Origin: Candidatus Omnitrophota bacterium | Lineage (GTDB): Bacteria > Omnitrophota > Gorgyraeia > B26-G9 | Length of the DNA stretch: 64,000 nt | NCBI GenBank assembly: GCA_018817165.1 | Contig: JAHITY010000118.1 | Coordinates: forward strand, 6,526-70,525 | Reading direction: 5' to 3' | Part shown: piece by piece, positions 1 through 59,124 of the stretch | Numbering within the stretch: the first letter of the stretch is position 1 | Layout of the letters: each line of letters starts with the position of its first letter | Notes under the pieces: generated by a model | Database searches by the model: none | The model's input: the letters and a program-made list of their open reading frames with translations, nothing else | Told to the model about the DNA's origin: nothing | Translations under genes and position numbers: made by a program

Positions 1-3000
1 CTGGTTCGATTCAGAATATTTCGATGACATATTCAATCAATGGCGGATCAACCTATCCTAATGTTATCGCTGCTTCTGTAAACGCATCTTTGGGGGCTTA
101 TCCATGGGCAATTCCCGACGCGATCGGCAATCAGGTGAGAGTAAGAATAACGGATACAGCTAATTCAACGGTTTATGACAGTTCTGATGCTAATTTCTCA
201 ATCAAAGGTGTATTGCATCTAGATACGCCAAATGGCGGAGAAGTGCTGGAAGTTGGCTCAAGCCGAAATATAACCTGGACAGTTACTGGTTCAATTTCCA
301 ATGTTAAATTGGAATATTCAGTTGATGCCGGGGCAACTTATCCGAATGTGATCACAGCATCTTTGAACGCGGCTTTAGGCACATATGCTTGGAGTGTGCC
401 GGATAATTTGACTACACAGGCTAGAGTGAAGATAACCAATCTATCAGATCCAACTGTATATGATCAGTCAGATGCTGATTTTGATATTATTGGTCAGCTG
501 ATTATTTCAGCGCCAAATGGCGGGGAAGTTTGGCCAGTAGGTACATCCCAAGCAATTTCTTGGGTAACCATGGGTTCAATTGTCGATGTTAAATTAGATC
601 TATCGACAAATGGCGGAGTTACTTATCCCACGGTTATAACAGCAAGCACAGCGGCGAATATTGGTTCATATAGCTGGATGATTCCGGACGCGATATCGAT
701 TGCTGCCCGGATAAAAATATCGGATATCAGTAATCCATCGGTAGTTAATGATGTATCTGACGCGAATTTCAAAATCAGAGGTAATCTGACATTAACCTAT
801 CCAAATGGCGGAGAAGTTTTGCTGATAAATGATAATCGAAATATTACCTGGACACGCTTTGGTTCAATTGTTAACGCGAGAATCGATTATTCGAAAGACG
901 GGGGAGGAACATTCCCCTACTCGATTATTGGTTCAGTAAACGCTGCATTGCAGACTTATGCTTGGAATGTGCCGGATGACCCAGGAACCTTGATCAGAGT
1001 GAAAATCGCGGACGCGGCGGATTTATCTGTATATGATGTTTCTGACGGAAACTTCATTATTCGCGGTGGATTCAGCATTATTACTCCAAATGGCGGCGAG
1101 CAATGGACAGTTAATTCAGTGCATGATATTACATGGACAACATTTGGAACGATAACGAATGTGCGTTTATCGTATTCAAGTAATAATGGTTCTAATTGGA
1201 CATTGATTACTGCTACAGTTCCTAATATTGATTTGTATTCATGGACAGTCCCGGATAGAATCTCTGAGCAATGTCTGGTAAGAGTATCCGATGTTAATGA
1301 CAGCGATGCGAATGATCTATCAAATGCCGCATTTAAAATCATTGGAACTTTGACATTGACAGCGCCAAATGGGGCAGAGCAATGGGGTGTTGCTACAGCC
1401 CAGAATATTAGCTGGACAATGAATGGAACAATCGCTAATGTGAAATTAGAATATTCAACTAATAGCGGAGCAACATATCCGAATTTGATCATCGCCTCAG
1501 CAGCCGGCGCGCCGCTAAATTATGTTTGGACAATTCCGGACGCGATTTATAATACTTTGAGAGTAAGAGTTTCTGATGTTTTGGACGTGAATGTTTATGA
1601 TACATCAGATGCTGATTTTAAAATCAAAGCTGATTTTACTTTATTGGTGCCAAATGGCGGAGAAACATGGGTAGTAAATTCCGCTCAAACCATATCCTGG
1701 ACTTCATCAGGAACAGTACCGAATATCAGACTGGATTATTCCTCTAATGCGGGTGCAAGCTGGACTGTAATATCATTGTCCCTGGCTAATGCAGGGTCAT
1801 ATTCCTGGACAGTTCCGGATGCTATTTCTAGCCAATGTAAGATCAAGGTAGCTAATGCGGCTGATACCAGTGCTTATGATGAATCAAATAATAGTTTCAA
1901 GATCAGAGGTGATTTGATCTTAACCGCGCCAAATGGCGGAGAAACATGGGCTGTGGGCGGTGTAAGGGTTATTACTTGGAATAGAGTCGGATCAATTGCT
2001 AATATATTGGTTGAATACTCAGATAATGGCGGAACAAATTTTGTGCCGATCATTGCTTCCACCCCTAATACCGGATCATATGCTTGGACAGTACCGGATT
2101 CAATTACAACTCAGGCTTTAGTGAGAATCACTAATCTTGCTGATCTAACGGTAACGGATACTTCGGCAGCGGTATTTAAAATCCAAGGCAGTTTCATGAT
2201 TAGCTCCCCAAATGGCGGCGAAGGCTGGAGAGTTGGAACTAATCAGAATATTAATTGGACCTGGAATGGAACATTACCGTTTGTTAAATTGGAATATTCA
2301 ATTAATAGCGGATCTACCTATAATTTAATAGCGGATAATTTACCGAATGTGGGAACCTATTCATGGTTAATTCCAGATGCTGTAGCCGGAACTTGTAGAA
2401 TAAAAGTATCTGATCCTAATGATTCACAGGCTTATGATATATCCAATGGTGATTTTCGGATCCGCTGCGGATTTACGCTGAGTACGCCAAATGGCGCGGA
2501 ACAATGGAGAGTCGGTTCAGTGCGTAATATTACTTGGGCCAGCGTGGGAACAGCGCCAACAGTTACTTTGCAGTATTCTCGCGATGATTTTGTAACTGAT
2601 ATCCAGCCGATTGTCAGCAATCAGGTAAATGTCGGCAGTTATGCTTGGACAATTCCGGATGCAATATCAGATAATGTGAAAGTTAAAGTACTTGATTCCA
2701 ATGATATCGGAGCTGCGGATTCTTCTAATGCTGTTTTTAGAATTACCGGAGATTTTACAGTAATTGCGCCAAATGGCGGGGAAATGTGGAATGTAAATGA
2801 TATTGAAAACATTACCTGGACCTGGCTGGGAACAATGTCCCAGGTGAGAATTGAATACTCAGTTGACGGTGGCGCAAGTTATCCGAATATTATTTCAGCA
2901 ACGAATAATGACGGAGTATATGAATGGCTTGTTCCGGATAGTATTACCGCCCAATTAAGAGTGCGGGTCAGTGATTTAGCAGATTCAACGGCTTATGATA

Positions 3001-6000
3001 CATCCAATGGCAATGCTAAGATCCGAGCGTTTTTTACAATGCTTACTCCTAATGGTTCAGAAATTATGACAGTTAACAATAGCTATGGAATCACCTGGAA
3101 TAGTGTAGGCACAGTGGCTAATGTTGATCTGCATTATTCAACAGACGATTTCTTGACTGCTAATGGGATTGTCGGCTCAACGCCAAACGATGGGGCTCAT
3201 ACCTGGACTGTTCCAGATTCAATATCAACTACAGTTAAAGTAAGAGTCAAGAGTTCGACGGATAGCGATGCTTACGATATTTCCAATGCTAATTTTAAAA
3301 TCCGAGGCGCGTTTACAGTTACTTCGCCGAATGGCGGGGAATTATGGGCAATTAATCAGGTCAGAAATATTACTTGGAACACCACTGGAACAATTGCTAC
3401 TGTAAGAATTATGTATTCAACTAATTCAGGAGCAACTTATCTAAATACAGTTACCAACAGCGCGGTTAATACTGAGACCTATGCTTGGACAGTTCCGGAT
3501 ACGGCTACAGCAAACGCTCGGATCAGAGTGCTGGATGCCGCGGATGCAACGGTGTATGATGATTCAGATGCTAATTTCAGAATGCAGGGATTCTTTACTT
3601 TGAATGCGCCAAATGGCGGGGAGTATTGGATTGTTGGCTCTAGTCATAATATTACCTGGACATGGGGCGGAACTTTAGCCAGCGCAAAACTTTCTTATTC
3701 AACAGACAGCGGCATAACTTATCCGAATGTGATTAATGCCGCAGCCCCAAATGGCGCGGGAAGCGGCGGAACATTTAATTATGCTTGGACAGTACCGGAT
3801 AATATTTCCCTAACAGTCAAAGTAAAGGTGGAAGATCCAAATGATAATACTGTATTTGATGTATCTGATGATGATCTGACTATTGGCGGACAGATTATTC
3901 TTACCAGCCCGAATGGCGGAGAACGCTGGATAACCCGAGAATCGCACCCAATTACCTGGACAACAGCGGGAACCGTTCCGATTGTGGATATTAGATATTC
4001 CAAAGATAATTTTGGATTGAATAATATCTCAATAGTCAGCGGACAAGTTAATATTAATTCATATGCTTGGAGTGTGCCGGATGACAGATCATCTACTGTG
4101 AAAGTAAGAATACTTGATCCGCGTGACCCAACCAATACCTATGATGATTCAAACGCTAATTTTAAAATCGATTATTATACTATTTCGTTTGAGATCCGTG
4201 ATTTGATCACCAATGAAGAATTGTCAACTTTAACGGTTGACGCGTCATCAAATTTAGGTGATATCTGGGCAACAGCAACCATGCCGAATAATCCAGGAGC
4301 GCCTTTAGGTTCACCAGTTACAGTTGATTTACCGTATGGCTTATGGACAGCGGTATGGTCAAAAGTTAGTTTTGGAGATAAACAGGCAAGCTTTGAAGTC
4401 AACGCGGATAAAGCAATAGATACTCTGTATATGGAAACAACAGTTATTCATATATGGCGGGCATATTCAGAAGTTACCTATGAGGCAACCAATGATGTGC
4501 TGAAAATAGCTTCCTGGCTAGAAAGAGATGGATATGCGGTATCTGGCGCGGAAACAGTAACGATTGATGTATATAATGATGATGGAGTTTTGGTACACAG
4601 CTTATTTTCCGATACTCCGAATGCCGCGGGATTTTTCAATTTAAAATGGAATGCTCCCACTGGGTTATTGCCATCAGTAGTATATACGGTTGTTACTAAA
4701 ATAACTAATGCTTCAGGCGCGGAATTTAAGACTCCGACTTCATTTAATATTACAGAAACTCAACAGCTGGTTGCTACTCAAGCAGCGATGGAAAGCATGC
4801 GTGATGTTACATTGCCGGCTTTTCAATCAGGAGTTGAAGCAACGATCAATGCGGGTATTGCTGAACAAAAAACATTGATTGATACTAAGATGACTGAGCA
4901 GACAAATATTATTGATACAAAAACAACACAAATGCAACAGTCGGTTGATGCTAGTATGACGGCTTTTGAAACCAGATCGCAGGTCGCGATTGATCAGTTA
5001 CAAGAAGGTGCTGACCAGGCAACTGCGGCTGGAGCAGAGCTGGAAACTATTGCTAAACGTCAATCAGGGGAATTGATTCTGCCGACAACCGTACTGACCG
5101 GCGGAACAGTTAATATTCGTTTTAGAATAGCTTCGGGATTAATGCCATTGATGGATGTTATTAGTTATGATGGAACAATGCTGAGAAATCAACAGATATT
5201 GACTGAATCAACATCAGTTGCTGGTTTATACGGATATGATTTGTATATTGATGGTACTCAGTTTAAACCAGGTAAAGCGTTTACAGTAGTTGTAACGGAA
5301 AATTCAACCGGAAATTTACAGGCTGGGTCTGTAATGGTTGAGTCAACATCATTAACATCGATTGAAGGTTTAGCATCGTCTATCCCTCAGGTTAAATCGA
5401 TTGCGGATCAGACTTTGCAAGCGGTTGACGCATTGAAAAATACATTAGCAACCGGAGGAGATATCGGAAAGGCGCTTTCTAGTTTACAAGATTCTGTTGA
5501 TGATCTGCCAGCTTTAATGGCTAAAGAAGGCCCCAGCGCGAAAATGGCGGAAGATATTAATGCTTTGATGGAGCGCTTACAGGCTTTTGCCGGTGAAGAA
5601 GGTTATGATATTTCAGCGATGGTTGAGGACGCATTGAGTAATTCACCGACAATGAAAGAAATCAAGAGCAGAACGGAAAGTATTAAGAGTATTGTTAATT
5701 TCTTGCAGCAGTTGTTTGAGCACAAGTTTGGCGGAATGGAAGATGAGCCAATGGTTTCAACCTCATTGTCAACTGGTAGTTTGGTGGTAAATGTGGTTGC
5801 GGCTAATCCATCGAGCACTATGTCGCAGATCACAAAGGTAAAAGTTTATTTACCTAAAGAAGTCACTCCGAATGATATAATGGATACAGGCGGATTGGAT
5901 GTTGAGTTTGACGCGAATCAATCAATATACTATGTATTTAAAGATAGAATAGAACTTGCTCCTAAAGAAGTTCGCGTATTCAAAGTTGAGATAGAAGATA

Positions 6001-6464
6001 TCTGGATTATTCCGCAGACAAGTTTGGATGTGCTTAAACTTAGAGCAACGAAACTTGCCAGTGCTCTGGAATCAACAGAGTATGCACAAGCAACTAGTAA
6101 GCTAGCTGAGAAAACATATGCAGCGGTTGATGAAGTAATTGCCAAGCAGAATGATATTACGCTGAGCCGAGAGCAGCATATTGGGGCTTATCGGGCAAAT
6201 ATTCTGATGATTGATAAGCTAAAAGCAGAACTTACAGATATGGAAAAATTGATGATTGTCAATCCCGATGAGGTAGGCGCTCTTTCACCGGCAATGACTT
6301 GGAAGATCATTATTATCGTAATACTGTTTATCGGATTGCTGGCAGTGGTATTCTTCTTTACTTGGTATCGCAAAGCTGGATTAACGCAGGATGTGCTTTC
6401 TAAAGCAAAACAGTTTTCTTTTCCTGAAGAAGGGGACACTGAAAAGGAAAAAGAAAAGAAATAG
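1..6464 (+). CDS. Giant repetitive cell-surface/adhesin-like protein. It is 5'-partial because the ORF is open to the window start. It has at least 15 tandem ~94-aa Ig-like repeats resembling Kre9/KNH-type domains, then beta-rich and coiled-coil regions, then a C-terminal TM helix with a charged KEKEKK tail.
   Basis: ORF 24..6464 stays open upstream in the same frame, and the first residues GSIQNIS fit the repeat. The repeat unit is PNGGE-W-VG-I-W-G-V-L-YS-DGG-T-Y-W-VPD-YD-SD-F-I, recurring 14 times in full with a ~282-288 bp DNA period. The repeats have diverged. The hydrophobic stretch WKIIIIVILFIGLLAVVFFFTWY lies near the C-terminus. Confidence 0.8.
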   Translation, partial: GSIQNISMTYSINGGSTYPNVIAASVNASLGAYPWAIPDAIGNQVRVRITDTANSTVYDSSDANFSIKGVLHLDTPNGGEVLEVGSSRNITWTVTGSISNVKLEYSVDAGATYPNVITASLNAALGTYAWSVPDNLTTQARVKITNLSDPTVYDQSDADFDIIGQLIISAPNGGEVWPVGTSQAISWVTMGSIVDVKLDLSTNGGVTYPTVITASTAANIGSYSWMIPDAISIAARIKISDISNPSVVNDVSDANFKIRGNLTLTYPNGGEVLLINDNRNITWTRFGSIVNARIDYSKDGGGTFPYSIIGSVNAALQTYAWNVPDDPGTLIRVKIADAADLSVYDVSDGNFIIRGGFSIITPNGGEQWTVNSVHDITWTTFGTITNVRLSYSSNNGSNWTLITATVPNIDLYSWTVPDRISEQCLVRVSDVNDSDANDLSNAAFKIIGTLTLTAPNGAEQWGVATAQNISWTMNGTIANVKLEYSTNSGATYPNLIIASAAGAPLNYVWTIPDAIYNTLRVRVSDVLDVNVYDTSDADFKIKADFTLLVPNGGETWVVNSAQTISWTSSGTVPNIRLDYSSNAGASWTVISLSLANAGSYSWTVPDAISSQCKIKVANAADTSAYDESNNSFKIRGDLILTAPNGGETWAVGGVRVITWNRVGSIANILVEYSDNGGTNFVPIIASTPNTGSYAWTVPDSITTQALVRITNLADLTVTDTSAAVFKIQGSFMISSPNGGEGWRVGTNQNINWTWNGTLPFVKLEYSINSGSTYNLIADNLPNVGTYSWLIPDAVAGTCRIKVSDPNDSQAYDISNGDFRIRCGFTLSTPNGAEQWRVGSVRNITWASVGTAPTVTLQYSRDDFVTDIQPIVSNQVNVGSYAWTIPDAISDNVKVKVLDSNDIGAADSSNAVFRITGDFTVIAPNGGEMWNVNDIENITWTWLGTMSQVRIEYSVDGGASYPNIISATNNDGVYEWLVPDSITAQLRVRVSDLADSTAYDTSNGNAKIRAFFTMLTPNGSEIMTVNNSYGITWNSVGTVANVDLHYSTDDFLTANGIVGSTPNDGAHTWTVPDSISTTVKVRVKSSTDSDAYDISNANFKIRGAFTVTSPNGGELWAINQVRNITWNTTGTIATVRIMYSTNSGATYLNTVTNSAVNTETYAWTVPDTATANARIRVLDAADATVYDDSDANFRMQGFFTLNAPNGGEYWIVGSSHNITWTWGGTLASAKLSYSTDSGITYPNVINAAAPNGAGSGGTFNYAWTVPDNISLTVKVKVEDPNDNTVFDVSDDDLTIGGQIILTSPNGGERWITRESHPITWTTAGTVPIVDIRYSKDNFGLNNISIVSGQVNINSYAWSVPDDRSSTVKVRILDPRDPTNTYDDSNANFKIDYYTISFEIRDLITNEELSTLTVDASSNLGDIWATATMPNNPGAPLGSPVTVDLPYGLWTAVWSKVSFGDKQASFEVNADKAIDTLYMETTVIHIWRAYSEVTYEATNDVLKIASWLERDGYAVSGAETVTIDVYNDDGVLVHSLFSDTPNAAGFFNLKWNAPTGLLPSVVYTVVTKITNASGAEFKTPTSFNITETQQLVATQAAMESMRDVTLPAFQSGVEATINAGIAEQKTLIDTKMTEQTNIIDTKTTQMQQSVDASMTAFETRSQVAIDQLQEGADQATAAGAELETIAKRQSGELILPTTVLTGGTVNIRFRIASGLMPLMDVISYDGTMLRNQQILTESTSVAGLYGYDLYIDGTQFKPGKAFTVVVTENSTGNLQAGSVMVESTSLTSIEGLASSIPQVKSIADQTLQAVDALKNTLATGGDIGKALSSLQDSVDDLPALMAKEGPSAKMAEDINALMERLQAFAGEEGYDISAMVEDALSNSPTMKEIKSRTESIKSIVNFLQQLFEHKFGGMEDEPMVSTSLSTGSLVVNVVAANPSSTMSQITKVKVYLPKEVTPNDIMDTGGLDVEFDANQSIYYVFKDRIELAPKEVRVFKVEIEDIWIIPQTSLDVLKLRATKLASALESTEYAQATSKLAEKTYAAVDEVIAKQNDITLSREQHIGAYRANILMIDKLKAELTDMEKLMIVNPDEVGALSPAMTWKIIIIVILFIGLLAVVFFFTWYRKAGLTQDVLSKAKQFSFPEEGDTEKEKEKK

Positions 6465-6471
6465 TGATCAA

Positions 6472-6674
6472 AGGACTCCGAAATGACTGCTAGGCCGCAG
6501 TCATTTTGGACTAAATTCGCGCAGGCTGACTTGACGTCACAAAAAACGTTCCGTAAGTCAGGCGAAATAATAATGATTCCAAAAGTGCCTGCTAGGCCGC
6601 AGTCATTTTGGACTAAATTCGCGCAGGCTGACTTGACGTCACAAAAAACGTTCCGTAAGTCAGGCGCTCATTTT
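6472..6674 (+). repeat. Family A structured repeat, a tandem pair of copies 1 and 2, immediately after the giant gene stop
   Basis: Two near-identical ~100-nt units (6472-6564 and 6569-6674). Each has hairpin 1 (ccRaaa..gctaggccgcag..tttYgg) and hairpin 2 (gcgcaggctgacttgacg..loop..cgtaagtcaggcgc). Confidence 0.85.
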
Positions 6675-7131
6675 AAAATGTCCGAAGGACGAAAAAGCAA
6701 AAGCTGCGGGACGAAGGACGCAAAAACATGAAAGCGCTTGGCTGATGGCAAAAATTCTCTTTGAGCGGCGCTTTCGAACTTAATTTTGACAAGGATGTCA
6801 AAATAGTGAGAACGCGCGGCTGGGCCTGCACGACGCAGGCTCAGGCTTAGCGAAAAGATGTGTTTTTGCCTAATACGCACGACTTACGACGCATTTTTTT
6901 TAAAAAAGTATATCGTATTGAGTATAGGGTTTAGAGTTTTTAAAAAGTATCCTTGTCACATAACGGCGGGACAGGCAACTATATTAAGACAAAACATTAG
7001 ATTATAGGTGTAACAAGAAGCACGAATAATGAGCACTCGTTTATTTGCTAAGAAGGTGGATTTTTTCGTCTCTCGTTCTTCGTCTTAGCGAAGCGCTCGT
7101 TTTTCGGCTTCAAAGGGGGCAAAGGATTGCA

Positions 7132-7383
7132 ATGGGGGAAAAGTTATTAAATGTAACAGTGTTAAACCCGGAAAAGATTGTTTTTCAGGGTAAGGCAGAA
7201 CGCTTAATTCTGCCTGGGGAAAGTGGGGTATTCGAAATCCTGCCATTTCATAAACAACTTTTAAGTCGATTGCTAACAGGTACGATTATAATTGATGAAC
7301 AAATGATTCCTATTTACCGCGGAGTGGTACAGGTAGGGGGGAATTCTGTGACTGTTATTATCGAAGAAAAAAGAAGCACTTAA
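7132..7383 (+). CDS. atpC: F-type ATP synthase epsilon subunit. It is a short form, an N-terminal beta-sandwich only. The ORF track starts at 7045; the ATG at 7132 follows a GGGGG-rich RBS.
   Basis: LNVTVLNPEKIVFQGKAERLILPGESGVFEILPFHKQLLSRLLTGTIIIDE matches the epsilon N-terminal domain pattern. The gene sits at the head of the atp cluster. Confidence 0.6.
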   Translation: MGEKLLNVTVLNPEKIVFQGKAERLILPGESGVFEILPFHKQLLSRLLTGTIIIDEQMIPIYRGVVQVGGNSVTVIIEEKRST

Positions 7384-7416
7384 AAATTAGAGGACTAATT
7401 AGGAAGGTAAATTATT

Positions 7417-7635
7417 ATGGCAAGACAAATAATATTGCTCATGGTTTTTGCTTTGTGTATATTAGGGCCATGCGGGGTTATGGCTGCGGCGGCTTTTGCC
7501 AGCATCAGTGCTTTGGGAAGAAATCCATCAGCCGCGCCGAAAATTTTTACAGCAATGACTATAACTCTGATTTTCGCTGAAGCATTGGCAATTATCGCGA
7601 TGTTAATAATATTTCAATTGTTTCAAACTGGCTAA
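7417..7635 (+). CDS. atpE: F-type ATP synthase c subunit (proteolipid)
   Basis: 72 aa with two TM helices and a polar loop GRNPSAAPK. A conserved carboxylate lies in helix 2 (IFAEALAII). Confidence 0.7.
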   Translation: MARQIILLMVFALCILGPCGVMAAAAFASISALGRNPSAAPKIFTAMTITLIFAEALAIIAMLIIFQLFQTG

Positions 7636-7726
7636 AGGATATAATCGCGCAATAAGTTTATTTGTGTTGGATGCGGTCAAATAATGACTTATTAATACTT
7701 TTTCGGTATAATAAGAAAGACGTGTT

Positions 7727-7880
7727 GACACTGGGCAAGGTTTAATGGGAACGAAGCCCGTATCGGTAAAGTTTAACGGTTTAGGCTAAAACAATAAATT
7801 TTAATACGGCAGACGTTACCGCAAGACGAAACGGGCATCGTAACCTTGACCGCAACATTTTAAAGTTGTAATTGTAAACA
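7727..7880 (+). repeat. Family B structured repeat, copy 1, between atpE and atpF
   Basis: gacactgggcaaggttta..acgaagcccgtatcggtaa..~60 nt..gacgttaccgcaagacgaaacgggcatcgtaacc. Outer stem gcccgt/acgggc, inner stem cggtaa/ttaccg. Confidence 0.8.
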
Positions 7881-7935
7881 GGCCTTTGTTAGAGTTTACA
7901 TAAAAAAACTGATTTGATAACCATAGGGGTGCTAA

Positions 7936-8670
7936 ATGATTATAGTTAGTTTTATCCTTTTACAGATTTTTATTTTTGGAGGACTTGCTTTTTTTCTCAA
8001 ACATTTGCTTACGAGAAATGTAACCAGCGCGACGTCTCATCTTCAGGGGATGATAAAGGAGAATACCGATAAACAAGAAGAAATGCAGAAGAAGATTGAA
8101 CAAGCGGAAAAAGAATACACGGCGAAGATTAAGAAAGCAAAAGATGAAGCAGAACAAATTGAGAAACAATGCCGCAAAGAAATAGAACAGGAAAGAGATA
8201 AAATTATCACTCAAGCACATGTCCAAAGTGAAGAACTGATGACGCGGGCTAAGAAAACTTGCGAAACTATTGTGGCTGAAATGAATAAAAATGTTAATGA
8301 TAAGGCAGTGGAACGCGCGGCTGAATTAATCTGCAAAGTTTTGCCGGAAAAAAATTGTCGAGATATTCATGAAGAATGGGTAAGGTCTTTAATTAATCAG
8401 GGGTTAAATAGTTTAGATCGGCTGCGGATACCGAATGATGTATCTCAGGTTGAAGTTATTACAGCTTTCGCTTTGACTGAACAGGAAAAAGCGGATTTAC
8501 ATAAACATCTTGTGGATCATTTGGATTTAGATTTATCAATTGAGGCAAATGTTCAGCCAGAAATTGTTGCGGGGATAATTATTAATATTGGAACATTAGT
8601 TCTTGACGGCAGCTTTGCAAATAAGATCAGGGAGGTAGTACATGAGTCATTCACCGGAACCGCAGAATAA
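7936..8670 (+). CDS. atpF: ATP synthase b subunit fused to a delta (OSCP)-like C-terminus (atpF-atpH fusion)
   Basis: An N-terminal TM helix is followed by a long charged coiled coil (b-like). The C-terminus PEIVAGIIINIGTLVLDGSFANKIREV matches the delta-subunit C-terminal motif. No separate atpH is present. Confidence 0.6.
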   Translation: MIIVSFILLQIFIFGGLAFFLKHLLTRNVTSATSHLQGMIKENTDKQEEMQKKIEQAEKEYTAKIKKAKDEAEQIEKQCRKEIEQERDKIITQAHVQSEELMTRAKKTCETIVAEMNKNVNDKAVERAAELICKVLPEKNCRDIHEEWVRSLINQGLNSLDRLRIPNDVSQVEVITAFALTEQEKADLHKHLVDHLDLDLSIEANVQPEIVAGIIINIGTLVLDGSFANKIREVVHESFTGTAE

Positions 8671-10135
8671 AACTCATGATATAAAGTTTGACGTAAAGGA
8701 AGTCGGACGGGTAAAGGCTGTGCGCGAGTTTATTGTTTTAGCGGAAGATATGCCTTCCTGTGTTAATGGTCAAATTGTTGAATTTGCCAATAACTTGCGT
8801 GGGATTGTGATGGGATTTACGCAGGATGAGGTGCAGATCCTGATGCTTGGGCCAAAAGCGCAAATCCGCGCTGGCGATAAAGTATATAGTAAAGCAAAAT
8901 CTCTGTATTTGCCTGTAGGAGATGGTTTTGTCGGGAGAGTTGTTAATGCTTTGTGTGAACCAGTTGATGGGCAAGGCGAAATTAAAACTGATGATATGTT
9001 TCCGGTATTCAAAGATGCTCCGGGAATTATGGAGCGTGATACTGTTGAACGGACTTTAGAATCCGGCACCAGGATTATTGACGCGATTATGCCATTGGCA
9101 CTTGGTCAAAGGCAGCTTTTAGTCGGCGATCGGCAAACCGGTAAATCCTCGGTAACAACTGACGCTATCATAAATCAAAAAGGAAAAGATGTTATCTGCA
9201 TCTATTGTGTTATTGGAAAAACTTATTCTGGATTAGTAAAAACAATTGAATTATTTAAAGAACATAAAGTTTTTGAGTACACGATGATTGTCAGCGGGAT
9301 TGCCTCAACTTCTGTTGGCGAACAATATTTAGCGCCGTATACAGCGGCAATGATCGGCGAATATTTTATGCAACAGGGCAAAGACGTTTTAGTTGTTTTT
9401 GATGATTTAACGCGACATGCCTGGATCTATCGTCAGATCTCATTGTTGTTAAAACGCGCTCCTGGCAGAGAAGCTTATCCCGGTGATATTTTTTATACCC
9501 ATTCGCAGCTTATGGAAAGAGCCGGGCAGATGAGCAAGGCTTTGGGTGGAGGATCAATGACTTTTCTGCCGATTGTGGAAACTTTACAAGGTGATGTGGC
9601 TGGTTTTATTCCGACTAATCTTGTTTCAATGACCGATGGACAAATTTATTTTAGTTCGGCTTTATTTAATAAAGGTTTTAGACCGGCAATTGATGTTGGA
9701 CTTTCAGTATCGCGTATTGGAAATAGAGCTCAGTGGCCAGCAGTAAAAGGGCCGAGCCGTAGTTTGCGGATGGAATTTTTACAATATAAAGAGTTAGTGG
9801 CAATGACGCAGTTAAGAACTACAGAATTATCAAAAGAAGCGGAAAAAAAGTTACGGCGAGGAGAAGCAATTACCGAACTATTGATTCAAGATAAAAATAA
9901 ACCGGTATCAATGGAGCATCAGGTAGTGGATATGTACGCGCTTAATCGAGAAGTATTAGATGAATTATCGGTTGAGCAAATTAGAAAATTTAAATTAGAT
10001 TTTTATGAAAAAATTAAAGAATGGTTTCCTAATTTCTCTACAAATCTAAGGGATACTAAAATTATTGTTGATGAAAGCATTGCTAATCTTGAAGAAGCGA
10101 TTTCTTTTTATTTTAATCAGGACCAAGAAAAGTAG
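8642..10135 (+). CDS. atpA: F1 ATP synthase alpha subunit
   Basis: P-loop GDRQTGKSS. Blocks such as PGREAYPGDIFYTHSQLMERAG and LSVSRIG match alpha throughout. Confidence 0.9.
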   Translation: MSHSPEPQNKTHDIKFDVKEVGRVKAVREFIVLAEDMPSCVNGQIVEFANNLRGIVMGFTQDEVQILMLGPKAQIRAGDKVYSKAKSLYLPVGDGFVGRVVNALCEPVDGQGEIKTDDMFPVFKDAPGIMERDTVERTLESGTRIIDAIMPLALGQRQLLVGDRQTGKSSVTTDAIINQKGKDVICIYCVIGKTYSGLVKTIELFKEHKVFEYTMIVSGIASTSVGEQYLAPYTAAMIGEYFMQQGKDVLVVFDDLTRHAWIYRQISLLLKRAPGREAYPGDIFYTHSQLMERAGQMSKALGGGSMTFLPIVETLQGDVAGFIPTNLVSMTDGQIYFSSALFNKGFRPAIDVGLSVSRIGNRAQWPAVKGPSRSLRMEFLQYKELVAMTQLRTTELSKEAEKKLRRGEAITELLIQDKNKPVSMEHQVVDMYALNREVLDELSVEQIRKFKLDFYEKIKEWFPNFSTNLRDTKIIVDESIANLEEAISFYFNQDQEK

Positions 10136-10164
10136 AAGCAATTAGTAATTTGTACAATAACAAA

Positions 10165-10328
10165 GATGTGTTGATACTCGGCAAGGTTTAACGGTAACGA
10201 AGCCCGTATCGGTAATGTTAAACGGTTTAGGCTAAAAACAATAAATTTTAATACGACAGACGTTACCGTAAGCCGAAACGGGCATCGTTACCCTAATCGT
10301 AACCGTTTAAAGTTGTAAATGTAAATCT
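10165..10328 (+). repeat. Family B structured repeat, copy 2, between atpA and atpG
   Basis: About 85% identical to copy 1 over ~155 nt, including the gatgtgttgatactcggcaaggttta head. Confidence 0.8.
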
Positions 10329-10496
10329 GACTTTGTTACAGTATAAATAATTTCTAATGGCAGTTACTAAAAAGAGAAAAGATGTAAAAAATAATAGGCA
10401 AACAAGGACTGTTTTTGCTTTTGAATTTTTTGATCAGGGGTTTTTTAGGTTTTAGAAATTAGGTGTTCTGAGAGAACAGGGAACGGGGGGTTTGCG

Positions 10497-11339
10497 ATGA
10501 TTCCGATAGCACAGTTAAAAGGAGATATGGAATTTTATAAATCCTTGGGTTCCTTGATCGAAGTCTTAAAACTAGTAGCTGCCGCGCAATATCAAACTCT
10601 AGAAAAGAAGATAAAAACCTATGGTTTATATTTAGATGCTTTAAGTAATGTTTTTAGTTGGCTGGATATGCAGCAAGTAAGACATCCTTTTGTGACTAGC
10701 AGTGATAAACCAGGGGCAATTGTCGCGATAACAACTGATGCTGGTTTCTTGGGCGGTTTAAACTCTCTAGTGATGAATAAAGCATTAGAAGAAGCAAAAA
10801 TATCTGATTCTCGGATGGTAATTGTGGGGAAAAGAGGACAATTGTATGTCGAGAAACGGGAAATGGTATACGCGAATTTTCCGGGAGTTGATGATCTGAA
10901 TCGCTTGCAGCAAGCTTTAAAGTTAAGAGACTATTTAATCGAAAATGTTTTGAAAGGTAAATTCGGAAAAGTTGCTATTGTTTTTCCCCGGGCATTATCT
11001 TTTACGTCACAGCGTATCGAGGTTTTGCAAGTTTTTCCTTTTGTCTGTGAAACATCGCAGAAAATGAATAATTTACAGATTTCTGATGTTATTTTAGAAT
11101 CAAAATTTGGGGATATTGTGGAATATATGATTTATTTGTGGTTGGGGCAGAAAATATTTGAAATTTTTGGCATGGCTAGATTATCCGAACAGGCAGCAAG
11201 ATTTATGCATTTAGAAAAATGTACTGATCGGATTCAGGACTTGGATAAAAAGCTGCGATTCCAATATTTTCGGGCTAAACATGAAATTATTGATCAAAAC
11301 ATGAGAGAACTCTTTGCGGCGAGGTTATTAAATGGCTAA
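10497..11339 (+). CDS. atpG: F1 ATP synthase gamma subunit
   Basis: Position between alpha and beta, a length of 280 aa, and a C-terminal helix of the ...RAKHEIIDQNMRELFAARL type. Confidence 0.75.
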   Translation: MIPIAQLKGDMEFYKSLGSLIEVLKLVAAAQYQTLEKKIKTYGLYLDALSNVFSWLDMQQVRHPFVTSSDKPGAIVAITTDAGFLGGLNSLVMNKALEEAKISDSRMVIVGKRGQLYVEKREMVYANFPGVDDLNRLQQALKLRDYLIENVLKGKFGKVAIVFPRALSFTSQRIEVLQVFPFVCETSQKMNNLQISDVILESKFGDIVEYMIYLWLGQKIFEIFGMARLSEQAARFMHLEKCTDRIQDLDKKLRFQYFRAKHEIIDQNMRELFAARLLNG

Positions 11340-12738
11340 TAATACAGCAAAAAAAAATGTAGTAGGAATCGTTGTGGCAGTTCAAGGGCCGGTAGTCGAT
11401 GTTAAGTTTGATAACCAAGCGGATGTTCCCAATGTGTTTGATGTAATTCATACATTTACAATCGATGGCCTGAGAATAACCTTAGAAGTCGCGGAACATT
11501 CTCCCGGCAATATTGCCCGCTGTATTTCAATTAATTCAACTCAAAATTTACAAAGGAATGCCCAAGCTTTTCCCACTGGAGGAGGAATTGAAATTCCGGT
11601 TGGTGATGAGACTTATACACGATTGATGAATGTAATGGGTGAGCCGATTGACCATAAAGGTCCGATTAAAGCCACGGAAACAAGACCAATCCGCTTGGCG
11701 GAAAAAGGAACTTTTGTCAGCTTAAAAAAAGAGAGCAAAACCAAATTTGAAATAATGGAAACCGGGATTAAAATTTTTGATCTGTTGTTTCCTTTGGTAA
11801 CTGGCAGCAAGAATGGGATTCTTGGTGGCGCGGCTATGGGAAAAAGCGTGCTTACTTTGGAAATTATTCAGCATATTGTTAAGAGACATAAAGGTACTTG
11901 TGTTTTTACTGGTGCCGGAGAGCGTGTGCGTGAAGGTAATGAATTATATCATGAACTTGCCCGCCATGATATTTTAGAAAAAATGAAAATTGTATTTGGC
12001 CAAATGAATGAACCTCCGGGAGCTAGATATGAAGTCGCGATGACCGGGATTACTTTGGCGGAAAGTATTCAGCGGCAGAATAAGGATGTACTTTTGTTTA
12101 TTGATAATATTTTTCGATTTCTCCAGGCTGGTCAGGAGATATCGACACTTTTAGGCCGCGTTCCTTCAGAAACCGGATATCAGCCGACCTTGATTTCCGA
12201 GGCTGCGGAATTCCATGAACGAATTAGAACCTCTGAAGGAGGGGGAGGATCAATAACCTCAATTGAAGCTGTATATGTTCCGGCTGATGATTTAACTGAT
12301 CCCGCGGTAGTCGCGATTTTTAGCTTTCTTGATTCAGTTATTGTACTTTCCCGTGAAAAAGTGCAGCTAGGGCTTTATCCGGCGATTGATCCATTGCTTT
12401 CGTCATGCGCTAATCTTGATCCGGATATTGTGGGGAAAAGGCATTATGATGTTTCGCAACAAGTATTGCAGTTGTTTCAGCGGTATGAAGAACTGCGGAA
12501 AATAGTTTTGGTTATTGGGATCGATGAATTATCTGCTCAAGATAGGACAATTTATGAGCGGGCTCGGAAAATGCAGTTTTTTCTTACTCAACCGTTTTCA
12601 GTTGCTGAAGCTTATACCGGAAGACATGGAGAATATGTGGTTTTGGAAGATACATTATCTAGCTGCGAGCGGATAATGAGCGGTGAATTTGACCAAAAAA
12701 GAGAGGACTTGTTTTACATGATTGGGGCGCTACATTAG
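11332..12738 (+). CDS. atpD: F1 ATP synthase beta subunit. It has a divergent Walker A (GGAAMGKS) and a DELSAQD loop.
   Basis: The family signature is present throughout (GERVREGNELYHE, DELSAQDRTIYERARKMQFFLTQPFSVAE). The P-loop reads GGAAMGKS instead of the canonical GGAGVGKT. Confidence 0.9.
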   Translation: MANNTAKKNVVGIVVAVQGPVVDVKFDNQADVPNVFDVIHTFTIDGLRITLEVAEHSPGNIARCISINSTQNLQRNAQAFPTGGGIEIPVGDETYTRLMNVMGEPIDHKGPIKATETRPIRLAEKGTFVSLKKESKTKFEIMETGIKIFDLLFPLVTGSKNGILGGAAMGKSVLTLEIIQHIVKRHKGTCVFTGAGERVREGNELYHELARHDILEKMKIVFGQMNEPPGARYEVAMTGITLAESIQRQNKDVLLFIDNIFRFLQAGQEISTLLGRVPSETGYQPTLISEAAEFHERIRTSEGGGGSITSIEAVYVPADDLTDPAVVAIFSFLDSVIVLSREKVQLGLYPAIDPLLSSCANLDPDIVGKRHYDVSQQVLQLFQRYEELRKIVLVIGIDELSAQDRTIYERARKMQFFLTQPFSVAEAYTGRHGEYVVLEDTLSSCERIMSGEFDQKREDLFYMIGALH

Positions 12739-12974: not shown

Positions 12975-15164
12975 ATGGATAGAAAAATTGATGCGCGGGT
13001 AATCCGTTTGCTTAAAGAAACAAAGAATCTTGATGAGGAAAACCTAAAAAGCTGTTTTATTAAAGCAGAAAACAAACAAAACTCGCCGATTCCGATCATT
13101 GCTGCTAATACCCAAATCTCAGAAGTTGAATTATTGGAAATAATTGCTCAGGATTTCCGCACAGAATATGTTGATTTGCGTAATACCTCCATAGAAAAAT
13201 CCTTGATTAAAAAAGTTCCGGTTAAAATCGCTGCCTATTATAAATTCGCTCCGATGCATCTGGAAAATCGGCTTTTAACAATTGCCCGGGCTTATCCTTT
13301 GGATATCAAAATACTTGATGAGATAAGAACGCACCTTGGGTATAGTATTAATGTTGTATTAAGCACGGAGCAGGATGTTAATGAAATGCTTAAGAAATAC
13401 TATGGTTTGGGAGCTTCAACTGTAGAGAAGATAATTGCCCAAAAAGCATATGAACATGTGACCAGTAAAAAACAAGATGATCTGGTGGATGATCTGGAAG
13501 AAACCGGAGAATCAACCTCGGTAATTCAACTGGTAAATCAGATAATTCTCGAGGCTTTTACTAAACGGGCAACGGATATTCATATTGAGCCTTATCGCAG
13601 TAAATTGCGTTTGCGCTATCGGATTGACGGTATTCTTTATGATGCCAATGTCTCTCCGGAAATTAATAACTTCCTTATTCCGATATTGTCGCGAATTAAA
13701 CTTATGTCTAATCTGAATATTGTGGAAAAACGAGTTCCGCAAGACGGCAGAGCAATTGTTCAAGTTCAAGGGCAGACTCTTGATCTACGGGTTTCGTTTA
13801 TTCCTACGCCTCATGGGGAAAGTGTTGTAATTAGAATATTGCCTACTGTTATGTTATTTGGTTTGGATAAATTAGGTCTAACCTCTATTGAACTTGATTT
13901 TTTCAAGCAATTGATCAGCAAACCGCATGGAATTATTTTTGTTACCGGACCAACGGGTAGCGGAAAAACAACTACGCTGTATACTTGCTTATCCAGTATA
14001 AATACTAGTGAACGGAAAATAATTACAATTGAAGATCCGATTGAGTATGAGCTTGAAGGGATAACTCAAATCCAAATAACTCCGGAAGTTGGTCTGGATT
14101 TTTCTCGTGGATTGAGAAGCATGCTGCGCCATGACCCGGATGTAATGATGGTAGGAGAAGTAAGGGATTTGGAAACAGCGGAAATAGCGATAAGAGTTGC
14201 TTTGACCGGACATCTAGTTTTTTCTACATTGCATACTAATGATGCTGCTAGCGGAATAACTCGTTTAATTGATATAGGCCTTGAGCCTTATTTAGTAGCT
14301 TCCAGTGTGGACGCGTTTATTGCGCAGCGTTTGCTGCGGCTGAATTGTCCGCATTGTAAAGCAGAAGATATTCAGGTAGTCCCAGGATTAAAAGCGCAAA
14401 TATTAAAAGAACTTGGTAAAAATGATGATGAAGAAATTAAAATTTATCGGAGCAAAGGCTGCCAAGCTTGTAATTTTACTGGTTTCTATGGTAGAACCGC
14501 GATACATGAAATATTAGTACTGAATGAGAAATTAAAAGCACTTACAGCAAAAAAAGCATCAAGCGATGAAATTAAAAAATGCGCGGTGGCTGATGGAATG
14601 AAGACATTACGCCAGAGTGGCTGGATCAAAGTCTTGGAAGGTCAAACAACCGCGGATGAAGTCTTAAGAGTTACTCAGGCTGATGTTTTACCGGAAAATA
14701 TGATATCGGTTGAGCAAGCTACATATGATTTTAAAAAAGATGAAAAGCCTTCTAAAATGCTTAAATTGGAGATGCCTGAAAAAATAGAACAAACAATAAA
14801 GTCTCATGATCAGCGTATTCACGAGCGAATAGAAAACAAGTTATATTTGCATTATAAAATGTTTAAAACAAAAACAAAAGATTCCGGAGAGCTGGAATAT
14901 GAGCCGGAGCTTATCGGAGTTACTAAGAATATTAGTGCCGGAGGAGTATTGCTGAATTCTGTGGAATATATTTCAAAAGGGACGATTCTGGATGTTAATA
15001 TGGAAATGCCTAATAATGAGAGAAAAATAGAATGTTTAGCAAGGGTTATTCGCTGTACAGAGGTTGTTCCTGATAAAAATTATGAAATAGCGATTTGTTT
15101 TTTAGATTTAGCAAGTGCCGAAAGAAGCAGACTTAATCGCTATATAAACAGTGTAAGCTCATAG
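12975..15164 (+). CDS. gspE: GspE/PilB-family secretion ATPase with a C-terminal PilZ (c-di-GMP receptor) domain
   Basis: GspII_E N-terminal domains, Walker [11 protein letters not shown], and the tetracysteine motif CPHCK...CQACNFTGFYGR. The last ~130 aa carry RIHER (RxxxR) followed by NISAGG (NxSxGG), typical of PilZ. Confidence 0.85.
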   Translation: MDRKIDARVIRLLKETKNLDEENLKSCFIKAENKQNSPIPIIAANTQISEVELLEIIAQDFRTEYVDLRNTSIEKSLIKKVPVKIAAYYKFAPMHLENRLLTIARAYPLDIKILDEIRTHLGYSINVVLSTEQDVNEMLKKYYGLGASTVEKIIAQKAYEHVTSKKQDDLVDDLEETGESTSVIQLVNQIILEAFTKRATDIHIEPYRSKLRLRYRIDGILYDANVSPEINNFLIPILSRIKLMSNLNIVEKRVPQDGRAIVQVQGQTLDLRVSFIPTPHGESVVIRILPTVMLFGLDKLGLTSIELDFFKQLISKPHGIIFVTGPTGSGKTTTLYTCLSSINTSERKIITIEDPIEYELEGITQIQITPEVGLDFSRGLRSMLRHDPDVMMVGEVRDLETAEIAIRVALTGHLVFSTLHTNDAASGITRLIDIGLEPYLVASSVDAFIAQRLLRLNCPHCKAEDIQVVPGLKAQILKELGKNDDEEIKIYRSKGCQACNFTGFYGRTAIHEILVLNEKLKALTAKKASSDEIKKCAVADGMKTLRQSGWIKVLEGQTTADEVLRVTQADVLPENMISVEQATYDFKKDEKPSKMLKLEMPEKIEQTIKSHDQRIHERIENKLYLHYKMFKTKTKDSGELEYEPELIGVTKNISAGGVLLNSVEYISKGTILDVNMEMPNNERKIECLARVIRCTEVVPDKNYEIAICFLDLASAERSRLNRYINSVSS

Positions 15165-24501: not shown

Positions 24502-24610
24502 TAATAATAATGATTCCGAAAGTGTCTGCTAGGCCGCAGCCATTTCGGACTAAATTCGCGCAGGTTGACTTGACGTCGTGAAGAACACTCCGTAAGTCAT
24601 GCGCTCATTT
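24502..24610 (+). repeat. Family A structured repeat, copy 3, in the tpiA 5' leader
   Basis: Shares ~105 nt with copies at 6472-6674, 42917-43023 and 47034-47134. It ends gcgctcattt directly before the AAGGAG RBS. Confidence 0.8.
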
Positions 24611-27142: not shown

Positions 27143-27159
27143 ACAGAGAACAGATAGAG

Positions 27160-27290
27160 CGGAAAGGGTAGTCGGTGACGAAGCCCGTATCGGTAACGGT
27201 CACGGTTAAAAATAATGAATTTTAAGCCGAAAGACGTTGCCCTAAAACGAAACGGGTATCGTAACCTTAACCATAACCTTTTAAAAATGA
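27160..27290 (+). repeat. Family B structured repeat, copy 3, between the ATPase gene and pilT
   Basis: gacgaagcccgtatcggtaa ... cgaaacgggtatcgtaacc cores shared with 7727-7880, 10165-10328 and 58990-59112. Confidence 0.75.
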
Positions 27291-42820: not shown

Positions 42821-42916
42821 ATAATCGCAAGGTATTAACAATGGTTGACGAAAAGTCTATTTTCTGATAAAATTTCTAGTTCAGAACCGAAGATGTGAAC
42901 AATCGAAAATATTTGA

Positions 42917-43023
42917 ATAATAATGATTCCGAAAGTGCCTGCTAGGTCGCAGTCATTTCGGACTAAATTCGCGCAGGCTGACTTGATGTCGCAATAATGC
43001 TCCATAAGTCAGGCGCTCATTTA
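42917..43023 (+). repeat. Family A structured repeat, copy 4, in the rpmE 5' leader
   Basis: The same two-hairpin element. It ends gcgctcattt directly before the AACAGGAGG RBS of rpmE. Confidence 0.8.
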
Positions 43024-47034: not shown

Positions 47035-47134
47035 ATGATTCCGAAAGTGTCTGCTAGGCCGCAGCCATTTCGGACTAAATTCGTGTTGGCTGACTTGACG
47101 TCGCGTAAATGCTCCGTAAGTCAGACACTCATTT
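47034..47134 (+). repeat. Family A structured repeat, copy 5, between murA and rpsP
   Basis: Carries paired GCGC to GTGT (5' arm) and GCGC to ACAC (3' arm) changes that keep the hairpin-2 pairing. Confidence 0.8.
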
Positions 47135-47244
47135 AAAGAGTAAAAGTATTATCCACGCCGAAAAACGGCGGGATTAAATTCGCACAGATAATTTATATTG
47201 CTAGAAACCACATAAATTATGTGCTCATTTGAGGAGGTGAAAAA

Positions 47245-58978: not shown

Positions 58979-58989
58979 ATACTCATTTA

Positions 58990-59112
58990 ACGGTTAGGGT
59001 GACGAAACCCGTATCGTATGACGTTGGCGGTTACGGAAGTTAATAAAAAATAACAGTTTTTAAACACGGAAAACGTAACCAAAAACCGAAACGGGCATCG
59101 TAACCGTTCAAC
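58990..59112 (+). repeat. Family B structured repeat, copy 4, between rny and ymdB
   Basis: gacgaaacccgtatcg ... ccgaaacgggcatcgtaacc cores. The inner stem is re-formed with ggttacg/cgtaacc. Confidence 0.7.
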
Positions 59113-59124
59113 GTGGGACGAATT

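Follow-up and report, generated by a model that had tools for sequence, protein, structure and literature searches.

Two gaps between genes of the ATP synthase (atp) operon in an uncultured Omnitrophota bacterium hold copies of one structured repeat, two further copies of which lie in other gene gaps of the same stretch of DNA. The question this locus raises is whether the repeat belongs to the operon, as an element that sets the stoichiometry of the ATP synthase subunits, or is a REP-like selfish repeat that tolerates operon interiors, both of which had been put forward in the original prediction. We refer to the whole 64,000-nt stretch of DNA analysed as the window, to the repeat as Family B, and to loci from other genomes by L numbers.

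Four copies of one repeat in the window

The pattern ACGAARCCCGTATCG-N45-75-CGAAACGGGYATCGT has exactly four matches in the window, all on the + strand, where 100 shuffles lead us to expect none. Its two arms, of 15 nt each, are invariant in all four copies and stand 55-70 nt apart. A covariance model built from 95 homologues recovers the same four copies from the 64-kb window and no others, at 81-96 bits. The predicted four-copy family is thus borne out by both pattern and model, with ends that fall within ~10-15 nt of those first given, and its flanking genes had been named correctly (atpE/atpF-atpH fusion, atpA/atpG, T2SSE ATPase/pilT and rny/ymdB). The conserved module of Family B measures 110-125 nt, extending to about 190-250 nt with lineage-specific flanks.

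7729..7863, + strand: copy 1, conserved module, in the atpE / atpF-atpH gap; pattern match and covariance model (90.5 bits); predicted fold -41.3 kcal/mol, z = -4.05
7751-7765 (5') and 7827-7841 (3'), + strand: copy 1, arms; pattern match 7751-7841
7715..7903, + strand: copy 1, whole inserted block, module plus lineage-specific flanks; delimited against L112
10175..10310, + strand: copy 2, conserved module, in the atpA / atpG gap; pattern match and covariance model (95.6 bits); predicted fold -41.3 kcal/mol
10197-10211 and 10274-10288, + strand: copy 2, arms; pattern match 10197-10288
10150..10341, + strand: copy 2, whole inserted block; delimited against L112
27141..27154, + strand: GAACAGAGAACAGA, 14-nt remnant of an older, unrelated hairpin arm, directly 5' of copy 3
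27156..27284, + strand: copy 3, in the T2SSE ATPase / pilT gap; pattern match and covariance model (84.4 bits); also folded
27178-27192 and 27248-27262, + strand: copy 3, arms; pattern match 27178-27262
58980..59124, + strand: copy 4, long-loop subfamily, in the rny / ymdB gap; pattern match and covariance model (81.5 bits)
59002-59016 and 59087-59101, + strand: copy 4, arms; pattern match 59002-59101

Predicted folds of the four copies range from -38.7 to -41.3 kcal/mol (z = -2.7 to -4.1 against shuffles). The predicted core helix is a near-perfect 13 bp, in which ACGA-A-GCCCGT-A-TCG pairs with CGA-A-ACGGGC-A-TCGT around two conserved A.A mismatches. Of the nested stems originally proposed, the outer GCCCGT/ACGGGC stem is predicted for copies 1-3 and the inner CGGTAA/TTACCG stem for copies 1 and 2; copy 3 is predicted to form a variant of the inner stem, and the minimum-energy fold of copy 4 differs from those of copies 1-3, its inner stem being one that would read GGTTACG/CGTAACC. 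The ~60-nt loop that these stems had been thought to enclose is not open in the predicted fold, where it holds a hairpin of its own. The flanks of copy 1 recur in copy 2 and in L102 and L080, and the core-to-core stretch of copy 4 closely resembles, by eye, that of L074, from another Omnitrophota MAG.

Conservation of the core as sequence

In profiles anchored on the arms, conservation sets in about 16 nt before the 5' arm and ceases about 20 nt past the 3' arm, with the consensus g..aa.GGTTACGGTA/ACGAAGCCCGTATCG ... ACGTAACCga.a.A/CGAAACGGGCATCGT/AACCGTAACC (slashes mark divisions of the consensus). The arms run on into hexamer-like units, which read GGTAAC or GGTTAC next to the 5' arm and GTAACC next to the 3' arm, and the occurrence of GTAAC on both arms accounts for the recurrent A.A mismatches. 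The top strand is uneven in its words (GTAAC 247 vs GTTAC 106; ACGAA 213 vs TTCGT 9). Neither 15-nt arm contains a self-complementary stem of more than 3 bp, and the pairing is from arm to arm.

The proposed helices are 84% paired across the alignment of 95 sequences, in which covariation in the outer, core and inner helices is no higher than in a control with shuffled 3' letters. The single variable pair of the core varies without compensation: the seven sequences with A at that position comprise six A.C and one A-U. There is no asymmetry in folding between the strands, which reach -42.1 and -42.4 kcal/mol and use G-U pairs equally. A brute-force search for covarying column pairs tells us nothing, since the register of the hexamer arms shifts. 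Part of the invariance of the 30 core positions comes from the search pattern itself, and a profile search of the same loci finds copies with 1-3 core substitutions. We conclude that it is as sequence, not through covariation, that the 15-nt arms and the GGTAAC/GTAACC hexamers next to them are conserved. Arms conserved as sequence that happens to be self-complementary favour a sequence-specific factor and disfavour an RNA of the riboswitch or ribozyme type.

An autonomous structured RNA, whether riboswitch, ribozyme or other, whose core is kept for ligand binding or catalysis, is suggested by the conserved 30-nt core, the variable periphery and the spread over many phyla, a pattern that resembles the conservation of self-cleaving ribozymes. 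We nevertheless consider it very improbable. Almost all conserved nucleotides lie in a predicted plain Watson-Crick helix rather than in loops or junctions, covariation is absent, the two strands are equally stable, and copies take both orientations relative to genes and also occupy convergent gaps. Rfam 15, to which the original prediction had looked for a possible match, gives none anywhere in the window at gathering thresholds, and none at the repeats when 7600-10500 is scanned at E <= 10. The broader class of cis-regulatory RNAs (riboswitch, leader, attenuator) is rejected on mixed orientations, 19 copies in convergent gaps, the lack of an enriched downstream gene family and covariation no higher than shuffled. 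A small ORF is ruled out by stops in two frames and by loop lengths that are not multiples of three, and a retroposed cellular RNA by the absence of Rfam similarity. The GTAAC and GGTAACCGTA words may resemble the 3' end of 16S rRNA, a likeness that is unsupported.

Empty sites in the sister lineage

Family B is absent from all four orthologous sites in a sister lineage (~94% protein and ~86% DNA identity). The atp copies can be compared with L112, which is collinear with the window (AtpA identity 94%, DNA identity 86-87%): window positions 7010-7714 and 7904-10149 align to L112 2049-2757 and 2764-5008, leaving 6 nt at the site of copy 1 in place of the window's 189 nt (7715-7903), and L112 lacks the block 10150-10341 that contains copy 2. 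Against these empty sites the extents first predicted for the repeats in the atp gaps were too short, the inserted DNA running from about 7715 to 7903 and from about 10150 to 10341. The junctions of copy 2, GCAATT/AGTAAT... and ...AAATAATT/TCTAATGG (slashes mark the boundaries), compare with ACAATT/TCTAATGA in L112 and fit a possible 3-4 bp duplication (AATT) or equally microhomology. Over the junctions against L112 the ends and any target-site duplication (AATT or ATAA) are ambiguous, the flanks being AT-rich and the relatives diverged. Just inside the left junction of copy 2, GTACAATAA matches the native GTATAATAA at the left flank of copy 1, a word also present in L112; in this AT-rich region the match tentatively suggests that copy 2 was copied from the copy 1 locus with a little of its flanking DNA.

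Copy 3 is missing from L195-L198 (PilT identity 94, 88, 86 and 78%), where the order gspE-pilT-gspE is kept, and copy 4 from L192, L193 and L194 (YmdB identity 94, 86 and 76%), where rny and ymdB remain in order. More distant relatives such as L113 have short atp gaps of unrelated sequence. The reverse case is seen in L060, where prmC and murA, two genes that overlap in the window, are separated by 216 nt that contain an antisense copy. Site-by-site comparison of these orthologous sequences shows all four window copies, as judged from the alignments, to have been gained after the split from the sister lineage.

A recent insertion between genes argues against a built-in control of ATP synthase. 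A dedicated cis-regulatory RNA for subunit stoichiometry, acting by processing or attenuation between c, b-delta, alpha and gamma, draws support from the position of two of the four window copies inside the atp operon and from a copy after atpD in L040. Yet the closest relative, L112, lacks both atp copies, and a profile HMM run on 80 related atp loci, collected by a metagenome search with AtpA, detects no clear copy of Family B and one weak match (E 1.5e-4). The same element stands at more than 100 other loci beside unrelated housekeeping genes, including Mur ligases, aminoacyl-tRNA synthetases, chorismate synthase, pilT and ymdB, about a quarter of the copies in co-directional gaps are antisense, and neither an Rfam match nor covariation was found. 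The empty sites largely refute this reading, which we regard as very unlikely. Should the copies affect how atp mRNA is processed in this genome, or how stable it is, the effect would be incidental and would result from recent insertion.

Surroundings of the copies

The atp genes themselves are arranged unusually (window 7132-12738). Here atpE is preceded by a short epsilon-like gene (PF02823, 83 aa) and followed by a fused b-delta subunit of 244 aa (PF00430 + PF00213), and no a-subunit gene is evident between the epsilon-like gene, atpE and the b-delta fusion. On the sister contig L192 a V/A-type ATPase subunit is encoded nearby. A promoter-like ATGACT-17-TATAAT at 7684-7712 lies just upstream of copy 1, and TTGTAA-18-TAGAGT / TACAGT occurs in the 3' extension of copies 1 and 2 (7866-7895; 10316-10342), facing the downstream gene. 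A truncated copy in L102 (5400-5350, - strand) retains the promoter-like 3' part right upstream of pilT. Such promoter-like sites in the flanks of copies 1 and 2 are not clearly above shuffled expectation (13 vs 9.0 +/- 3.2).

Family B lies directly upstream of a pilT-family gene in three Omnitrophota genomes (L074 4397-4497, L102 5412-5478 and window 27156-27284), one of these copies being truncated. The pilT-family genes of L074 and L102 are 47-51% identical to the window's PilT and possibly paralogues, and the gene upstream differs. Closer PilT relatives lack Family B, and the L074 copy closely resembles, by eye, window copy 4 and not copy 3. The window also contains three T2SSE (GspE/PilB-like) ATPase genes whose conserved DNA blocks (13521-13840, 25994-26307 and 28958-29271) reflect ordinary paralogy and are not repeat elements.

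A second, unrelated intergenic repeat of ~105 nt occurs at window positions 6464-6571, 6566-6673, 24503-24610, 42916-43023 and 47028-47135, with two hairpins, TCCGAAAGTGnCTGC...GCAGnCATTTCGGA and GCCTGACTT...AAGTCAGGC; it is probably the repeat that the original prediction had named Family A. This repeat too is polymorphic, the tandem pair at 6464-6673 being absent from L112, where a partial Family A (5134-5184) lies in the atpA/atpG gap, slightly downstream of the insertion point of copy 2, at a place where the window sequence is unrelated. The tandem pair directly follows a giant ORF (window 24-6464, continuing upstream to 4358 aa on the source contig) made of tandem repeats of ~279-288 nt (~95 aa) with a conserved PNGGE motif.

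Placement relative to genes

Judged by crude ORF calls, Family B copies are almost always intergenic and often fill nearly the whole spacer; the element itself has no ORF. By orientation of the flanking genes, 58 copies are co-directional sense, 21 co-directional antisense, 19 convergent and 2 divergent, so that divergent promoter gaps are avoided. Sense copies make up 73% and antisense copies 27% of those in co-directional gaps (binomial p = 4e-5), and a same-strand gene lies upstream of 82 of 106 copies. Placement downstream of genes is the known distribution of REP-type repeats (PMC3733652), and that of Family B is of this type rather than that of a 5' leader.

An intrinsic terminator, which is a GC-rich hairpin with a U-tract right behind it, is ruled out for want of a consistent U-tract: in the anchored profile T is not enriched past the 3' arm, only 21 of 106 copies have four or more T in a row in the 20 nt scanned just beyond the 3' flank, and a terminator scan finds none at copies 1 and 2.

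All-against-all clustering and Pfam scans of the upstream and downstream ORFs reveal no gene family enriched on either side, the largest cluster of neighbours in the all-against-all comparison covering 11 loci. The neighbours are housekeeping genes (Mur ligases, aminoacyl-tRNA synthetases, chorismate synthase, ATP synthase, helicases, pilT and ymdB). No similarity to Y1 transposases was detected in 110 loci and the window by tblastn with IS200/IS608 TnpA queries. Among the loci covered by a non-exhaustive search no arm pair encloses a gene, as the ends of a related autonomous insertion sequence would. Integron attC sites have R''/R' boxes of the form RYYYAAC/GTTRRRY and occur in cassette arrays with an integrase. 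Family B shares with such sites an imperfect palindrome of 110-125 nt with strand-specific mismatches, and often one copy per gene gap in the same orientation (L056 and the window). Its outer boxes, GGTAAC/GTAACC, do not fit this consensus, however, its flanks are core housekeeping operons and not cassettes, and neighbour clustering and Pfam scans place no integrase near the copies, all of which makes an attC-like or other site-specific recombination site exceedingly unlikely.

Marks of mobility beyond the window

Several loci have the structure of mobile DNA. L056 contains a full copy of Family B nested in the loop of another, L049 a tandem array, and solo 3' halves are found in L102, L035 and L056. 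Copies 94-97.5% identical sit in unrelated flanks, both within one MAG and between MAGs. In L033 two copies face in opposite directions at a distance of 1.4 kb, in a region whose genes are all on the same strand, which argues against a strict replication-strand rule.

Family B also occurs at contig ends in several Desulfobacteraceae MAGs and accounts for some MAG contig breaks. In MAGs of the Desulfobacteraceae type the module is the center of a ~250-nt composite repeat bounded by CTAG...CTAG (CTAGATGTCT...GAGCTTCGCTAG; loci L001, L005, L017, L029, L032, L034, L044, L068, L075, L076, L088, L089 and L106). Small GC-rich hairpin modules are optionally inserted into the composite repeat, within which several contigs end, and in L089 a 16-nt sequence, GGAGCTATGCATCTAG, is found on both sides.

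In two orthologous pairs the element is more conserved than its coding flanks (98.3% vs about 91%, and 92.6% vs about 84%); with the fixed core left out, the difference has P = 0.02 and 0.10. On these alignments, constraint or gene conversion among copies is likely. An element conserved above the flanking coding DNA could mean a host-level function or gene conversion, and not pure selfishness.

Spread across phyla

A scan of species-representative genomes with the arm pattern returned at least 109 stretches, and the exact 30-nt core is present at more than 109 loci in at least eight phyla of uncultured bacteria. A tally of the 109 listed stretches, made by hand from record titles, assigns 36 of the matches listed to Omnitrophota, 31 to Desulfobacterota, Deltaproteobacteria and 'Pseudomonadota' MAGs with the same composite repeat, 14 to Nitrospirota, 8 to Planctomycetota or the PVC group, 3 to Bacteroidota, 2 to WOR-3, 2 to CPR, and 1 each to Schekmanbacteria, Ratteibacteria and Subteraquimicrobiales, with 10 unclassified. 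Closed chromosomes and contigs of more than 100 kb are among the matches, so that a binning artefact is ruled out. The plasmid collection contains no real match and the viral contig collection only one. Literature searches by sequence strings, and by MITE keywords for these phyla, returned nothing on Family B.

That a 30-nt core should be letter-identical across at least eight phyla is the surprising part of these results.

Hairpin turnover in operon gaps

The gspE/pilT and rny/ymdB gaps of relatives that lack Family B are not all empty of structure. They contain other long hairpins, whose arms are tandem 6-7-mers:

L192 2364-2500, L194 2397-2500 and L195 1389-1500: gap hairpins of relatives
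L196 1314-1500, L197 1278-1500 and L198 1386-1500: gap hairpins of relatives

In L195 (PilT identity 94%) the gspE/pilT gap is occupied by a complete (GAACAGA)n / (TCTGTTC)n hairpin, and the GAACAGA/TCTGTTC words recur in the L192 and L194 hairpins; those of L196 and L197 are built of (GTAGCGA)n and that of L198 is of the GTATTG type. The rny/ymdB gap of L193 has a short palindrome only. Among the genomes examined, long hairpins, of unrelated sequence, occupy the gspE/pilT gap in five of five, and a long hairpin is present in the rny/ymdB gap in three of four. No motif of the GAACAGA kind occurs in the window apart from the remnant GAACAGAGAACAGA, which immediately precedes copy 3; with the nesting in L056, the remnant suggests a tendency of Family B to insert into hairpins already present, or to take their place. 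Alternatively, some hairpin may be maintained in these spacers while its sequence turns over. The arms of Family B are themselves hexamer-periodic (GGTAAC), like the tandem 6-7-mer arms of the hairpins in related genomes, and 'periodic-arm' intercistronic hairpins may constitute a general class in Omnitrophota.

These gaps bear on the possibility that the hairpin benefits the host. Cells would need an intercistronic stem-loop for mRNA protection, for decay punctuation or for slowing RNA polymerase, and Family B would be one interchangeable cassette, spread by selection at the RNA level and not by selfish transposition. The frequency of long hairpins in the two gaps speaks for this, as do the excess of sense copies in co-directional gaps, the same-strand gene upstream of most copies, the conservation of the element above coding flanks in the two orthologous pairs, and the L102 remnant upstream of pilT, which retains the 3' half. 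On the other side, the empty atp sites of L112 are free of hairpins where the window has copies 1 and 2, so none is required there; more than a quarter of co-directional copies are antisense, with neither covariation nor G-U strand asymmetry; nested, tandem and contig-end copies are typical of mobile DNA; and a function at the RNA level leaves the identity of the 30-nt core across phyla, letter by letter, unexplained. We judge this joint proposal of host need and RNA-level spread to be rather unlikely.

Comparison with known repeat families

In architecture Family B comes closest to REPINs, and in size and location to ERIC and Correia elements. REPINs are inverted REP doublets mobilised by RAYT transposases (Bertels and Rainey, PMC3337134). 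Family B shares with them two conserved inverted arms around a less conserved spacer (~55-70 nt in Family B), a long imperfect hairpin, and many dispersed copies without an ORF in intergenic positions downstream of genes. A REP unit, however, is a 20-40-bp hairpin with an unpaired GT[AG]G or CGTC at its foot (PMC3733652; PMC6006769), whereas the arms of Family B are not small hairpins themselves and lack such a foot, the anchored profiles showing no GTAG or CGTC conserved beside them; a canonical REP is ruled out on these grounds. A REP or REPIN system would also include a cognate RAYT (TnpA-REP) gene bordered by its repeats, a REPtron; no RAYT was found for Family B in the loci and window searched. 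REPIN families are described as lineage-specific and vertically inherited, unlike a core that is identical across at least eight phyla and missing from four sites of a sister lineage. The suggestion of a REP-like selfish repeat is supported as to kind, given the insertion polymorphism, the solo halves, the copies that are nested or in tandem and the scarcity in divergent gaps; Family B is not a canonical REP, and its spread across phyla far exceeds what could be seen in the window.

ERIC/IRU and Correia (NEMIS) elements are palindromic MITEs of 100-155 nt from Enterobacteria and Neisseria. Family B, at ~125 nt, is likewise an imperfect palindrome over the whole unit, inserted in either orientation into transcribed intergenic or intercistronic regions, with subfamilies that differ by internal insertions and deletions and a possible effect on mRNA stability. 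It has no sequence similarity to them, the TA duplication and terminal inverted repeats of Correia elements are not evident in it, and those families are not known outside one family or genus. Classical MITEs have inverted repeats at their extreme ends and a target-site duplication of fixed length; the inverted arms of Family B are sub-terminal, and conservation ends about 16-20 nt outside them.

A third likeness is to the IS200/IS605-derived PATEs and the hairpins recognised by HUH Y1 enzymes, in the sub-terminal imperfect hairpin, the strand-specific mismatches, the bias in orientation to genes, and the lack of clear terminal inverted repeats or long target duplications. PATEs, by contrast, keep separate left-end and right-end hairpins where Family B has one long fold, no tnpA or tnpB was found for Family B in the loci searched, and in L033 it takes opposite orientations within 1.4 kb.

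A probable mobile palindrome that tolerates operon interiors

We consider it probable that Family B is a non-coding, non-autonomous, interspersed palindrome of the MITE or REPIN-like kind, which tolerates operon interiors and would be recognised and moved by a candidate trans-acting factor. As shown above, Family B enters or is copied into short intergenic spacers, including those that already hold a hairpin. Having no ORF and no consistent U-tract, it would sit inside operons and be read through within the mRNA; operon interiors would tolerate it because it neither codes nor terminates. A transcribed copy would fold into a hairpin of about -40 kcal/mol and, by analogy with REP, ERIC and Correia elements, might be an incidental barrier to 3' exonucleases or a substrate of RNase III. 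The arms would be the recognition site of the sequence-specific trans-acting factor, most plausibly a mobilising enzyme that works on the folded single strand in the manner of HUH/Y1 transposases with REP and IS200/IS605 hairpins; an enzyme of this type is proposed because of the strand-specific mismatches, the sub-terminal arms and the lack of clear terminal inverted repeats or long target duplications. Either the factor or the element would move between phyla that share anoxic sediment and groundwater habitats. Against a mobile palindrome of this kind stands the fact that conservation is highest in the sub-terminal or internal part and the outer parts vary from lineage to lineage, where a classical terminal-inverted-repeat MITE would show the opposite. 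Also against it are the lack of a transposase or other partner gene in the searches above, the ambiguous ends, the two opposed copies in L033, the conservation above coding flanks and the frequency of long hairpins in the gspE/pilT and rny/ymdB gaps of relatives, where a hairpin may itself be selected.

A bolder version, which we hold as a tentative possibility and doubt on balance, is a REPIN-like replicator common to many phyla. Its invariant core would be the substrate of a single-strand-hairpin enzyme or of a universal host factor, shared or exchanged among Omnitrophota, Desulfobacterota, Nitrospirota, Planctomycetota, WOR-3, CPR and others, and it would target existing intercistronic hairpins. 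If this were true, hairpin families would replace one another in the same operon gaps.

As a type, an intergenic palindromic repeat is ordinary; the cross-phylum core, the want of any match in Rfam or in the literature searched, and the apparent replacement of hairpins in the same gaps are what is unexpected. In this genome, annotation should treat the repeats in the atp, pilus and rny-ymdB operons as mobile palindromes of recent acquisition and not as conserved regulators. Different hairpin families in the same operon gaps of sister lineages offer a tractable case of intercistronic hairpin turnover. REP, REPIN, ERIC and Correia elements are viewed as lineage-specific, a view that the core of Family B, shared by phyla of uncultured anaerobes, does not fit; the core implies either a widely shared mobilising or binding factor, or exchange of non-coding DNA across phyla in these communities.
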